NCBI GenBank assembly: GCA_020696385.1
Contig: JAEHCQ010000002.1
Span: 256,001-320,000, forward strand
Direction of reading: 5' to 3'
Length of the DNA stretch: 64,000 nucleotides
DNA from: Methanobacteriota archaeon
GTDB taxonomy: Archaea; Thermoplasmatota; Thermoplasmata; SG8-5; JAGLSY01
The position numbers and the translations under genes are program-made. Below are positions 1,836-26,918 of the stretch, piece by piece (the stretch's first letter is position 1; each line of letters begins with the position of its first letter). Below the pieces are notes generated by a model, which made no database searches, had not been told where the DNA came from, and was given only the letters and a program-made list of their open reading frames with translations.

Positions 1836-2396
1836 ATGGACATGGTATTTCATATTCAGATCAAGCCAGACCATCAATACAGGGTGGATATGTGCAAGAT
1901 CAAGGAACCTTTTCTGGAATTCAATTCTGGTCAGATGACCCTGATACTTCCAGAGGCTGCCAATCAAGATGAGGCGGTGAAAAAGCATGTTGCCTGGATC
2001 AGCAAAGTGCATGGCAATGTGCTTTATTCCCTTCAGCAAGCGGAAGCAAAGTCCCTGAAGACCAGAACCCAGGCGGATTTCAGACAGTATGTGTGGGAAT
2101 TAGCAGAGGCTTATTCCACCGAGCTGGGTGTGGATTTTTACAAGATAAAATTTAAAAAATTAGATGATAAATGGGCGAGTTGCGATACTGGTGGCAATCT
2201 CACCGTCAATACATTACTGAAGAAATTACCGGATGAGTTGATCGAATTTGTCATATTTCACGAGGTGGTGCATCGCCTGGAGATGAACCATGGCAAGAAT
2301 TTCTGGAAGCTGATCAAACAGAAATATCCCGATCACAAAAAGTTCGATATGGAGCTTTTCGTGTACTGGATGATGGTGGAGAAGATCACGAAGTGA
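1836..2396 (+). CDS. M48/YgjP (DUF45) family zinc-motif hydrolase
   Basis: KWASC...LTVNTLLKKLPDELIEFVIFHEVVHRLEMNHGKNFW matches the DUF45 HExxH...NH..FW signature. Confidence 0.8.
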   Translation: MDMVFHIQIKPDHQYRVDMCKIKEPFLEFNSGQMTLILPEAANQDEAVKKHVAWISKVHGNVLYSLQQAEAKSLKTRTQADFRQYVWELAEAYSTELGVDFYKIKFKKLDDKWASCDTGGNLTVNTLLKKLPDELIEFVIFHEVVHRLEMNHGKNFWKLIKQKYPDHKKFDMELFVYWMMVEKITK

Positions 2397-2481
2397 GTTC
2401 AAATCTCCCCAATTATGAATAAATATAATAAGAGCCACTCGGGAGTTCAAATCTCCCCAGTTTTGAATTAATAAAAATAAG
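2395..2481 (-). repeat. Duplicated and inverted copies of the tRNA-Thr 3' end (period about 48-49 bp)
   Basis: GAGTTCAAATCTCCCCA at 2395 and 2443; AATAAGAGCCACT occurs twice. A 22-bp perfect inverted repeat pairs 2440-2461 with tRNA positions 2486-2507. Confidence 0.85.
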
Positions 2482-2584
2482 AGCCACTGGGGAGATTTGA
2501 ACTCCCGACCTACTGATTACGAATCAGTCGCTATTTAGCGTTCTTTGGCTTTTAGTCCAAAGAAAACCGCTAAGCCACAGTGGC
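2482..2584 (-). tRNA. tRNA-Thr(CGT) with 31-nt non-canonical D-loop intron (position 20/21, 2535..2565)
   Basis: Acceptor GCCACTG/CAGTGGC, anticodon arm ACTGA-TTCGTAA-TCAGT, T arm GGGAG-TTCAAAT-CTCCC. Removing 2535..2565 restores the D arm GCTTAGCGGT|ATAGC. BHB: AGCG/CGCT helix with GT^T and AA^A bulges. Confidence 0.9.
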
Positions 2585-2643
2585 ATTTGGATTTTAAGAG
2601 ATAATTGGCAATGGGTTATAAAATTAATTGGGCAAGTGAGTGC

Positions 2644-5157: not shown

Positions 5158-5261
5158 TTGCACAACCTCGGAGGATAAACATTGGGAAAGTATTTTAATG
5201 TCCTCTTATTGTGGGGATTCATAATATGGCATATCTCGGTATGCTGTTATTAAAAAAGTCC

Positions 5262-5359
5262 ATATGGGCCCGTAGCAGACAGGCCCGTAAACACCAAAAC
5301 AATACAATATGGGCCCGTAGCCGACCTACGGTCCCGTAAATAAGAAAACAATACAATAT
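5262..5359 (+). repeat. Two upstream tandem copies of the tRNA-Lys 5' end plus leader
   Basis: GGGCCCGTAGC at 5266, 5311 and 5360 (tRNA start). AAAACAATACAATAT precedes copies 2 and 3. Copy 2 is followed by its inverted copy CTACGGTCCC. Confidence 0.85.
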
Positions 5360-5433
5360 GGGCCCGTAGCTTAGCTAGGTAGAGCGCCCGGCTCTTAACC
5401 GGGTGGTCTTGGGTTCGAATCCCATCGGGCTCG
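5360..5433 (+). tRNA. tRNA-Lys(CTT)
   Basis: Acceptor GGGCCCG/CGGGCTC, anticodon arm CCCGG-CTCTTAA-CCGGG, T loop TTCGAAT. Confidence 0.95.
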
Positions 5434-5456
5434 TATTTATTTATTTTATATTTTGA

Positions 5457-5595
5457 GAGCCCGAATGCCAGCAATGAATATTCTATTGGGATTCGAATGA
5501 AGTTCGACGAGTGATTTTCCGAGTGGAAGGAGGAAAATCGCAAGCTGGACTTGTTCGCTCCGCAAACAAGTCCAGGATCTCATCAGGCTCGTATT
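5457..5595 (+). repeat. tRNA-trailer element copy 1 (antisense T arm + two-hairpin core + duplicated tRNA 3' end)
   Basis: Antisense pieces GAGCCCGA and TGGGATTCGAA. Core AAGTTCGACGAG..GATTTTCC/GGAAAATC..CTGGACTTGTT/AACAAGTCCAG. ATCTCATCAGGCTCGTATT is a 17/19 match to the tRNA end. Confidence 0.85.
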
Positions 5596-26335: not shown

Positions 26336-26448
26336 TGGACCCATCGGGATTTGAACCCGAGCCCTCCTGCTGGTTTGGGATTGGACGAATTATGTCATTC
26401 GCCCAAACCATGCAAAGCAGGCGATCTTCCAGTCTGATCTATGAGCCC
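26336..26448 (-). tRNA. tRNA-Ala(TGC) with 39-nt canonical 37/38 intron (26372..26410)
   Basis: Acceptor GGGCTCA/TGGGTCC with G3:U70; anticodon CCTGC-TTTGCA|A-GCAGG; BHB TTTG/CAAA helix with CA^T and CC^A bulges. Confidence 0.93.
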
Positions 26449-26608: not shown

Positions 26609-26683
26609 GGGCGCGTGGCCTAGCCAGGATATGGCGACAGCCTCCTAAGCTGTAAGTCAAGGGTTCGAATCCCTTCGCGCTCG
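26609..26683 (+). tRNA. tRNA-Arg(CCT)
   Basis: Acceptor GGGCGCG/CGCGCTC; ACAGC-CTCCTAA-GCTGT; AAGGG-TTCGAAT-CCCTT. Confidence 0.95.
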
Positions 26684-26712
26684 CTTTTATTTATTTTGGA
26701 TTCGTAGAGTAA

Positions 26713-26819
26713 GAAGGATGAGAACAAAGTTCGACGAGATTTATCTGAATATGATGAAGATAAATCGAGCTGGACTTGTTAGCTTTGCGAACAAGTCCAG
26801 GATCCCTTCGCGCTCGCTT
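26713..26819 (+). repeat. tRNA-trailer element copy 2
   Basis: Degenerate antisense T arm GAAGGATGAGAAC. Core AAGTTCGACGAG, GATTTATCT/AGATAAATC, CTGGACTTGTT/AACAAGTCCAG. Exact 18-bp copy of the tRNA end (26802-26819 = 26669-26686). Confidence 0.88.
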
Positions 26820-26918
26820 ATATTTTTTCTAAATGTGACTTTACAAATTAACCCTACACATTTAGAAGATCTAACACGTTTCCAACCATATTACCAGTAA
26901 AGTGTTTGATTCGATTTT

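Follow-up and report, generated by a model that had tools for sequence, protein, structure and literature searches.

A structured, tRNA-linked cassette family of archaea with a core fixed in the T loop

Described systems closest to the cassettes

Escherichia coli carries tRNA-linked repeats (TLRs), which are short non-coding units immediately 3' of a tRNA or rRNA gene (PMC8144298, citing Egan and Landy 1978). In the accessible text of this source, TLRs repeat the final 18-19 bases of the gene at their own end, number one to five units per locus, and are of largely unknown function, and the RrA/B/F repeats of E. coli are transcribed via terminator read-through and bind Hfq and CsrA (PMC8144298). 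The archaeal cassettes analyzed in this study resemble TLRs in their position 3' of tRNA genes, in the copied gene end (here 16-19 bases), and in the occurrence of multiple units (here up to two, stacked with other cassette types). However, TLRs are bacterial, and the accessible text on them reports no inverted T-arm copy, no fixed T-loop core, and no form inserted into the T loop. A sequence relation is not expected, and three TLRs are known small RNAs, whereas the archaeal cassettes are known from DNA alone. We found no description of archaeal elements of this kind in the literature, subscription journals and supplements apart; by analogy, the cassettes may be the first archaeal counterpart, as far as our searches go, to these bacterial units, which are themselves unexplained in origin and role.

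Hairpin-defined, strand-specific, and non-coding elements moved by Y1 HUH transposases include the miniature elements derived from IS200/IS605 (PATEs) and the REP/REPIN sequences. The cassettes share with these elements the strand-specific, non-coding hairpins, a fixed short target, the lack of target duplication, and the presence of a Y1 gene in 16 of the 22 genomes of the order. Nevertheless, the archaeal hairpins are unlike each other and unlike those flanking the Y1 gene, TnpB is absent, and the approximately eight copies per genome are all located at tRNAs and are not dispersed.

At an archaeal tRNA, a 1.8-kb insert with a recombinase gene has been described, together with a model of an intron-bearing attP (Sugahara et al. 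2012, PMC3293823). As far as the accessible text of that study goes, the cassettes are similar in the duplicated tRNA 3' segment beside an intact gene, the insertion inside the duplicate, and the proposed tie to intron gain, whereas they are only about 100-140 bp long, gene-free, and built around a structured core that is conserved from one tRNA species to many others. Fujishima reportedly described non-canonical (T-arm) tRNA introns, and the transposition of introns in Thermoproteales, in 2010. Here the likeness lies in related short sequences at a defined position of different tRNA genes and in a core found inside the T loop itself in one genome (G015); the host tRNAs of the window are, however, uninterrupted, and the splicing motif could not be drawn by eye at the borders of the two-hairpin core.

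The two copies in the window

The window, meaning the whole analyzed stretch of 64,000 nucleotides, comes from the genome of an uncultured sediment archaeon, 2.28 Mb in 50 contigs with 45% G+C (hereafter G000). Two elements were identified in the window, at 5455-5591 and 26698-26817, each behind an intact tRNA gene, and their parts are as follows.

5359-5434, plus strand: intact host gene for tRNA-Lys(CTT) (ARAGORN; Rfam tRNA, 63.2 bits)
5435-5454, plus strand: T-rich spacer between gene and cassette, a likely tRNA terminator (sequence; similar spacers at other copies)
5455-5467, plus strand: inverted copy of the tRNA-Lys acceptor 3' strand, GAGAGCCCGAATG (sequence; outer stem in the predicted fold)
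5488-5507, plus strand: inverted T-arm copy GGGATTCGAA (5488-5497), a turn, and the sense T-arm 5' half GTTCGA (5502-5507) (sequence, predicted fold)
5508-5576, plus strand: Lys core, consisting of CGAG, hairpin 1, CAAG, hairpin 2, and G (sequence, fold; stretch replaced in the sister genome, flanks kept)
5577-5591, plus strand: copy of tRNA-Lys positions 59-73, ATCTCATCAGGCTCG, with 2 mismatches to the gene and a T-rich run after it
26609-26684, plus strand: intact host gene for tRNA-Arg(CCT), without an intron (ARAGORN, Rfam)
26685-26719, plus strand: T-rich spacer, then the tRNA-Arg 3' region as a decayed inverted copy whose final GGAT (26716-26719) serves as 5' strand of helix P1 (sequence, fold)
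26720-26734, plus strand: GAGAAC-AAA-GTTCGA, hairpin H0, ending in the sense T-arm 5' half (sequence, fold)
26735-26801, plus strand: Arg core, consisting of CGAG, hairpin 1, GAG, hairpin 2, and G (sequence, fold, model; replaced in the sister genome)
26802-26817, plus strand: exact copy of tRNA-Arg positions 59-73 plus one base, ATCCCTTCGCGCTCGC, with a T-rich run after it

In the Lys copy, GAGAGCCCGAATG fits the 3' end of the real tRNA-Lys better than the downstream copy, and in the predicted fold the segment 5488-5507 forms helix P1 with 5577-5581 as well as the small hairpin H0. Lys hairpin 1 is GATTTTCC/GGAAAATC (5513-5520 with 5532-5539) around an 11-nt loop of the form GA-N7-GA, and hairpin 2 pairs 5545-5555 with 5565-5575. 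The Arg copy contains a more decayed inverted piece, GGATTCG, at 26698-26704; its H0 pairs GAAC with GTTC while GA faces GA at the base, its hairpin 1 is GATTTATCT/AGATAAATC (26738-26746 with 26758-26766, 11-nt loop), and its hairpin 2 pairs 26770-26780 with 26790-26800. Both cores are bounded by GTTCGA and ATC(C/T)C, followed by the 3' strand of the host tRNA.

The first-pass annotation had reported a common 12-mer, two hairpins with their stems, T-loop halves, and tRNA hosts, and all of these sequence statements were correct when checked by sequence, pattern, and shuffle comparisons. The 12-mer AAGTTCGACGAG has exactly two sites in the window, 5500-5511 and 26727-26738, and none of 100 shuffles had two or more matches at up to one mismatch. 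The hairpin-2 pattern (CTGGACTTGTT/AACAAGTCCAG followed by GATC) matched the plus strand at 5545-5579 and 26770-26804 without mismatches, against a shuffle expectation of 0.00, and the third match was the palindromic Lys stem itself on the minus strand with 3 mismatches; over the 12-mer and this pattern, the shuffle expectation ranged from 0 to 0.18. The position of the cores within T-loop halves before a host tRNA 3' end was likewise borne out (exact in the Arg copy, two mismatches in the Lys copy), as was the antisense T arm before each core (GGGATTCGAA at 5488-5497 and GGAT at 26716-26719).

No ORF of note overlaps the window cassettes, and no ORF-coded enzyme was found within or beside them; the neighbours encode a Kelch-repeat protein, a DUF362 protein, ABC transporters, PGK, and others. 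Reads from four runs reach only approximately 5307-5449, which covers tRNA-Lys and short flanks, and come from contigs of relatives; the best run contained 0.20 of the 41 words of the Lys locus. As a separate observation, the tRNA-Arg(CCT) gene of the sister genome G002, a congener of G000 with syntenic flanks approximately 95-97% identical (by eye), bears a 25-nt intron that is absent from the G000 gene.

Distribution, anatomy, and conserved pairing

Genome-wide and related-genome searches, as the first-pass annotation had proposed, revealed further copies. BLAST and motif scans of the whole G000 genome identified additional ones behind tRNA-Arg(TCT), tRNA-Gly(TCC), and tRNA-Arg(TCG). A covariance model built from four copies (R1) matched the window at 5487-5584 (Lys, 83.5 bits) and 26714-26809 (Arg, 104 bits), found six copies in G000 with the addition of Leu(CAG), and matched three of 61 related genomes, among them G002 with seven copies. 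A second model built from 14 copies (R2) raised the count in G000 to eight by adding Ala(CGC) and Glu(CTC). Across the order, R2 gave 31 matches in 12 of 22 genomes, including six of the seven high-quality ones; all genomes are metagenome-assembled, and absence in the incomplete ones carries little weight.

The linkage to tRNA genes was strict: all 31 matches in the order lie directly 3' of a tRNA gene or of a contig-edge tRNA 3' end. This position and a 3' end that repeats 16-19 bases of the gene end are both traits of the TLR architecture. All eight R1 matches in relatives were directly 3' of a tRNA, and among the 16 new R2 matches, 15 lay behind a tRNA predicted by ARAGORN and the 16th behind a contig-edge tRNA 3' end (by eye). 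Copies remote from tRNAs, which the first-pass annotation had named as evidence against its proposal, were also sought, and the R1 and R2 searches of G000, its relatives, and the order yielded no convincing one. A permissive hairpin expression for orphan cores was useless for this purpose, with 253 matches genome-wide that fell mostly in coding sequence. The hosts across the order are tRNAs for Lys, Arg (four anticodons), Gly, Leu, Ser, Glu, Ala, Trp, and His, and several tRNAs (Leu TAG, Gly TCC, Glu CTC, and Ser GCT) have a cassette in more than one family, which fits old vertical inheritance under constraint and hence function. Tandem units were present in G011, G012, and G091. In a class-wide sample of 151 genomes, searched with stricter filters, two of the 129 genomes outside the order had a match, one being a true tandem pair of units behind tRNA-Gly(TCC) and the other a false positive with no tRNA nearby.

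Across the order, the units have the following anatomy. Behind the tRNA 3' end follow 10-20 A/T-rich bases, the inverted T arm GGGATTTGAACC, GAA or GGA, and GGTTCA; then come CGAGC, hairpin 1, GCGAGC, hairpin 2, three to four bases ending in G, AATCCC with the acceptor 3' strand, and a T run. At tRNAs with a TTCGAAT loop, the T-arm halves are GTTCGA and ATCCC. The two-hairpin core is approximately 57-75 nt long, the insert between the tRNA-end repeats is about 100-140 bp, and an oligo-T run precedes the inverted T arm in each unit. The insertion point is fixed: in TTCGAAT loops the core separates A58 from A59, and in TTCAAAT loops A57 from A58. Downstream of the core, the 3' copy spans 16-19 bases from T-loop position 58 or 59 to tRNA position 73, where the direct repeat stops save for chance matches in the T-rich trailer. 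The inverted T arm is complementary to both sense T-arm halves and forms helices P1 and H0 with them; therefore, the unit is predicted to fold as a four-way junction on the tRNA-sense strand, with the core emerging from a rebuilt T-arm duplex at 57|58 or 58|59.

The base of hairpin 1 consists of C-G, G.A, A.G, and G-C pairs, which covary to A-T in three copies, and is fully Watson-Crick in the Ala copy. Among the 31 distinct copies, the H0 loop is GNA in 26 and closed by C-G in 28. A stable GNA mini-hairpin, GC-GGA-GC on the opposite strand at the apex of Lys hairpin 2, had been singled out by the first-pass annotation. The reading is correct, although this orientation is the exception: C-GNA-G occurs there on the tRNA-sense strand in 13 of the 31 distinct copies, and on the opposite strand only in the window Lys copy.

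Pairing is strongly conserved. In the 14-copy alignment, 96.7% of the cells were paired compared with 76.0% in 500 shuffles, none of which reached the observed value, and 20 of 25 pairs showed two-sided changes, so that the covariation suspected from the two window copies holds in a larger alignment. These counts come from related copies and from an alignment fitted to the model, a procedure that favours the structure; the controls in which the partner was slid by 1-3 columns nevertheless fell far below (28-54% pairing). Over the 31 distinct copies, G-T and T-G cells numbered 25 compared with 5 for A-C and C-A, in a count where some T-T cells stem from a one-column misalignment of the TTCAAAT type. 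This excess suggests that it is on the tRNA-sense strand that the structure counts, in the form of either RNA or single-stranded DNA, and strand-biased C-to-T change (deamination) could contribute to it.

The cassettes thus constitute a compact and strongly covarying four-way-junction family for which we found no counterpart in Rfam or the literature. Rfam 15 at the gathering threshold detected only tRNA in the window. In E-value scans of both cassettes, the best score was 20.1 bits against a gathering threshold of 70 (mir-8356), and C/D-box models scored 9-15 bits against 41-50. CTGA and TGATGA are present in the loop of Arg hairpin 1, but with spacings of approximately 22 and 45 nt, and this C/D-like motif is absent from the G002 Lys copy and most copies of the order; a C/D-box sRNA was rejected. 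We also rejected a K-turn reading of hairpin 1, which is not conserved across the family, and a minihelix or tRNA mimic, since the acceptor antisense strand is confined to a subset of the copies in this genus.

Conserved pairing and a G-T excess are also expected of a functional RNA, which is the main rival to the reading favoured below and is possible, though we consider it the less probable of the two. A cassette transcribed by terminator read-through or from the A/T-rich spacer would form the four-way junction and be freed or stabilized by its tRNA-like 3' end. By analogy, it would be the archaeal counterpart of the E. coli repeats and might act as a small RNA, a protein sponge, or a 3'-processing or termination module. 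Pairs kept through double changes and G-U favoured on the sense strand are consistent with this, as is the Leu(CAG) locus, where the cores of G000 and G002 are approximately 97% identical (by eye) and yet one C-G pair has become T-A on both sides. Unpaired and non-canonical positions (the tandem G.A of CGAG/GAGC and the GNA loop) are conserved across the families of the order, the same tRNAs bear cassettes in different families, and the 3' copy stops at tRNA position 73, a processing boundary. A precedent exists in the RrA/B/F repeats of E. coli, whose read-through transcripts bind Hfq and CsrA according to the accessible text (PMC8144298).

Core exchange, filled T loops, and candidate mechanisms

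Comparison with the sister genome revealed replacement of the core. At the Lys and Arg(CCT) loci, G000 and G002 are the same up to GTTCGACGAG and again from GATCCC, and the core between is roughly half identical (by eye, as are the other identities read off alignments and the splicing-motif checks in this study). The G002 Lys locus has a different hairpin 1 without the GA-N7-GA loop, and the hairpin-2 type differs from that of G000 at both loci. The 11-bp hairpin-2 stem of the window copies is specific to G000, its nearest relative being the Gly(TCC) copy of G002. The first-pass annotation had taken the differing hairpin 1 of the two window copies as a compensatory change and had stressed their identical hairpin-2 stem. 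Pairing is indeed kept and the identity is real, but neither represents evolution in place, since the whole core was replaced relative to G002 at both loci. At Arg(TCT), the cores are roughly nine-tenths identical (by eye), with one G.T changed to G-C. Only the core appears to move, and each tRNA has its own inverted T arm and duplicated 3' end. The family proposed from the two window copies exists as a true structure-defined, tRNA-linked family, and of the three results that the first-pass annotation had named as refuting it, none came up.

This wholesale exchange between near-identical genomes, with loss of the GA-N7-GA loop at the G002 Lys locus, speaks against a trailer RNA. So does the decay of single copies: the Gly(TCC) copy of G000 is without the 3' strand of hairpin 2 and ATCCC, and the 3' copy in G013 has ceased to match the T stem of its host. 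In the G000 copies, tRNA and cassette are separated by runs of 4 to 7 T, and a transcript starting approximately 25 nt past the A/T-rich spacer would begin within the cassette, leaving out the inverted T arm. In addition, the stable hairpins classically known from DNA include GNA triloops closed by C-G and the GCGAAGC motif.

An empty-site allele, which the first-pass annotation had recommended looking for, was found. By a pattern search for the core start, we identified in G015 a 57-nt core of the family between GGGTTCA and AAC of a class-II tRNA-like gene. This core reads CGAGC-hairpin-GCGAGC-TA-hairpin-GTAG, scored 18.9 bits with R2, and had been missed by the model search. The insert lacks both an inverted T arm and a second 3' end, target bases are not duplicated, and the loop is uninterrupted in the orthologues of the gene in G012, G007, G000 (2 copies), and G002; this is the only filled/empty pair for this core family, and the gene is an odd, multi-copy, and tRNA-like one. 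A loose pattern for inserts in TTCGAAT-type T loops across the order recovered only known copies and chance matches. Where the tRNA gene is an ordinary one, its own T arm is not interrupted; the core lies in a spare partial copy behind oligo-T. A second case concerns a different core: tRNA-Ser(CGA) is an intact gene with a cassette in G000, whereas in G002 it has a single 3' end and 49 nt inside the T loop after TTCGAA. By eye, the G002 insert can be drawn as bulge-helix-bulge-like, with the helix UUCG/CGAA and the bulges AAC and AUU cut after the second base.

These T-loop insertions raise the explanation that the cores are, or derive from, splicing-type T-loop introns and that the cassettes are side products of introns being gained or lost at the level of RNA or cDNA, which we regard as very unlikely. 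The single insertion position in the T loop and the bulge-helix-bulge-like drawing of the 49-nt insert, although of a different core, agree with it, and T-arm introns are common in other archaea according to the accessible part of a preprint (10.64898/2026.10.13.758758). However, the window tRNAs are intact and leave nothing to splice, a 4-bp helix with two 3-nt bulges could not be drawn by eye at the borders of the two-hairpin core in the cassettes or in G015, and no copy of a CCA end is present. An archaeal splicing-type intron was rejected as a class for the window copies on the same two grounds, namely the intact tRNAs and the missing motif around the core (by eye).

At three loci, Lys, Arg(CCT), and Arg(TCT), synteny between G000 and G002 breaks off immediately past the cassette, as at an integration hot spot. 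Such footprints would be expected if small integrative elements, or what is left of larger ones, had recombined with the T loop or 3' end through a tyrosine recombinase, each event leaving a regenerated tRNA, an element end, and a displaced 3' end. The inserts have direct repeats of the tRNA's 3' end on either side and can be stacked in tandem, and T arms are said to resemble recombinase core sites (reportedly noted by Williams in 2002). By analogy with the model of 2012, the core would be an insertion inside the attachment site of the element. That model, as given in the accessible text, crosses an intron-bearing attP with an intron-free attB (Sugahara et al. 2012, PMC3293823). We nevertheless consider site-specific integration unlikely. 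The insert between the repeats is only about 100-140 bp, without an ORF of note and among unrelated neighbouring genes, in none of the copies examined was an integrase gene or fragment seen inside or next to the unit, and a search of IMG/VR viral contigs with one exact 25-base pattern gave 0 matches. A circle of approximately 100-150 bp would be too small for ordinary double-strand recombination, the G015 insert lacks any 3'-end repeat, and the left sides of the two putative sites are unrelated. An att footprint was rejected as a class on this evidence, and integrase footprints and an RNA-level intron origin are both less likely than a DNA module or a trailer RNA.

We tentatively favour the reading that the two elements of the window are members of a lineage-specific family in which a non-autonomous, T-loop-targeted DNA module is copied as DNA and parked in fold-back copies of tRNA 3' ends. 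The DNA level is preferred because of the core swaps, the filled/empty pair without target duplication, the stacking, the decay, and the intervening terminators. Under this DNA-module reading, the core would be copied from locus to locus either by a strand-specific, hairpin-recognizing enzyme or by template switching or gene conversion primed by common T-arm sequences. It would survive only where the essential tRNA is left unbroken, that is, in a fold-back copy of the tRNA 3' end with direct-inverted-direct layout. If the stretch between the two T-arm 5' halves were deleted, the cassette would become a T-loop insertion, and an intron if spliceable; deletion between the two 3'-end copies would yield a clean gene again.

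Of the two copying routes, a strand-specific hairpin enzyme such as Y1 fits the G-T bias, the GNA loops, and the lack of target duplication, but does not fit the unlike hairpins. Template switching driven by inverted repeats provides an analogy for the direct-inverted-direct layout; proceeding via the common left arm of 25-30 nt and a short right arm, it would explain this layout and would need no enzyme. It does not, however, explain why the inverted arm never lacks a core. Insertion of the core into an existing spare copy also leaves unexplained the inverted T arm and GNA turn that are present in every cassette. A coreless hairpin with an inverted T arm and GNA turn had 0 matches in the 22 genomes, and insertion into a pre-existing hairpin of this kind was rejected.

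The first-pass annotation had suggested looking for an associated enzyme gene, but none tied to the family was found. An IS200-type Y1 (HUH) transposase gene, the only HUH transposase, is present in 16 of the 22 genomes and in all seven high-quality ones, mostly as a single copy, with its sequence conserved across the order and its synteny partly so; in G000 it is located at C50:1965-2396. In the 22 genomes, cassettes and Y1 do not track each other: ten have both, two only cassettes, six only Y1, and four neither. The Y1 gene lies within approximately 2.5 kb of the class-II tRNA-like gene in five genomes, and in G015 that tRNA-like gene is the interrupted one. The hairpins on either side of Y1 show no relation to the cassettes and are without the CGAGC motif, and no cassette flanks the Y1 gene in G000. 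The core always follows TTCGA or TTCA of the T loop, and comparison of G015 with the five empty orthologues gave no target duplication, both of which are traits of IS200/IS605 elements. An IS200/IS605 miniature element was nevertheless rejected, since hairpins 1 and 2 are unlike each other and unlike the Y1-flanking hairpins. The Y1 protein scored 119.5 bits with the NCBIfam IS200 model and 28.2 bits with the REP-associated model, below its cut-off of 80; with no flanking cassette in G000 and copies only at tRNAs, REP/REPIN with a RAYT was rejected as well. A TnpB guide RNA (omega RNA), with the 16-nt 3' flank as guide and TTCGA as adjacent motif, was ruled out by the absence of TnpB: PF07282 was above the cut-off in one of the 22 genomes, which is neither G000 nor G002. 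A classical MITE was rejected because no inverted repeat is formed by the two ends of the core (CGAG... and ...G) and target duplication is lacking.

A bolder form of the DNA-module reading is doubtful, slightly more so than a functional trailer RNA. The core would be a new structure-defined mobile element that sees the T loop as single-stranded DNA, may be mobilized in trans by Y1, and is kept in a harbour that it has a part in making, the direct-inverted-direct fold-back at the tRNA 3' end, and cassette collapse through direct-repeat deletion would be a general route to T-arm introns.

The arrival of non-canonical tRNA introns in archaeal genes is a still-open question, and the cassette family may show how such odd introns arise. 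Three states occur in this order of Thermoplasmata: the tRNA may be clean, it may have behind it a cassette with the insert in a spare T arm, or the insert may interrupt the T loop of the tRNA or tRNA-like gene itself. Congeners can differ at one and the same locus by two of these states. The presence of the three states among close relatives makes a route from cassette, via deletion between repeated T-arm halves, to T-loop insert testable.

Beyond the assembled genomes, a 16-base pattern scan of metagenomes returned at least 120 stretches. Among the 80 loci examined, the others were chance matches and one gave a weak model match, which was a truncated unit behind tRNA-Leu.

Units ahead of tRNA genes and their downstream counterparts

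Two additional units were found 5' of tRNA-Lys(CTT) in the window, and the order of their parts is as follows.

Window 5250-5358: units 5' of tRNA-Lys, each with a promoter-proximal string (AATACAATAT) and then the tRNA's opening 11 bases, which recur in inverted form after a 4-nt turn

The copy of the tRNA start, the turn, and the inverted copy read GGGCCCGTAGC-CGAC-CTACGGTCCC. These units mirror the 3' cassettes, in which an inverted T-arm copy, the sense T-arm 5' half, and a core are followed by a copy of the tRNA 3' end. The close sister genome G002 carries one unit more than the window's genome (G000) ahead of tRNA-Lys, and comparable 5' copies were identified at Thr(TGT), Glu(TTC), and Ser(CGA).

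On the downstream side, a 3'-end copy was present at about 15 of 47 tRNA genes. Different cores closed by the tRNA 3' end were found at Ala(GGC), Ser(GGA), Ser(CGA), and Glu(TTC). Additionally, a second cassette type of about 150 nt begins with an inverted T arm (AGGATTCGA) and ends with the acceptor 3' strand (cacGGTTCCCCGCA); at Leu(CAG), it is stacked 3' of the two-hairpin cassette.

G000 C46:47960-48030: second cassette type, behind tRNA-Leu(CAG)
G000 C11:13770-13900: second cassette type, behind tRNA-Leu(TAG)

Unusual tRNA and tRNA-like genes

The window also holds a coreless cassette.

Window about 2385-2590, minus strand: Thr(CGT)-like tRNA (Rfam match at 2482-2549) with downstream cassette

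This tRNA seems to contain an insert in the D-arm region, and the corresponding 5' end lies ~40 nt farther upstream. It is trailed by a loop-inverted T-arm copy (CTGGGGAGATTTGAACTCCC) fused to the acceptor 3' strand, and then by a second inverted T-arm copy.

In five genomes, class-II tRNA-like genes adjoin an IS200-type transposase (Y1) gene, with partial 5' copies upstream.

G000 C50:1231-1318 and 1710-1796 (locus L050): class-II tRNA-like genes; also at loci L051, L055, L058, and L205

These genes have a long variable arm, a Ser-like acceptor, G73, and the anticodon loop CTGAAGA, for which ARAGORN called GAA (Phe). The ordinary tRNA-Phe(GAA) is located at a separate G000 site (C22:354012-354084).

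Introns and a small hairpin repeat

The tRNA-Arg(CCT) gene of the window (26609-26684) has no intron, whereas its sister-genome counterpart (locus L016) contains a 25-nt insert directly behind the anticodon, within flanks that look about 97% identical to those of the window. Here, close relatives differ in intron presence. A divergent neighbor of the window's tRNA-Arg(CCT) lies 160 nt away.

Window 26336-26448, minus strand: tRNA-Ala(TGC), interrupted by an intron of 39 nt

A further small repeat consists of a hairpin, AAATG(C/T)G-ACTTTACAAATT...-C(G/A)CATTT, that is T-rich on both flanks.

Window 26818-26870: behind the Arg(CCT) cassette
G000 C46:58813-58900: between tRNA-Arg(TCT) and its cassette
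G000 C11:13690-13770: 3' of tRNA-Leu(TAG)

At the G002 Arg(TCT) locus, this repeat is absent between the tRNA and the cassette.
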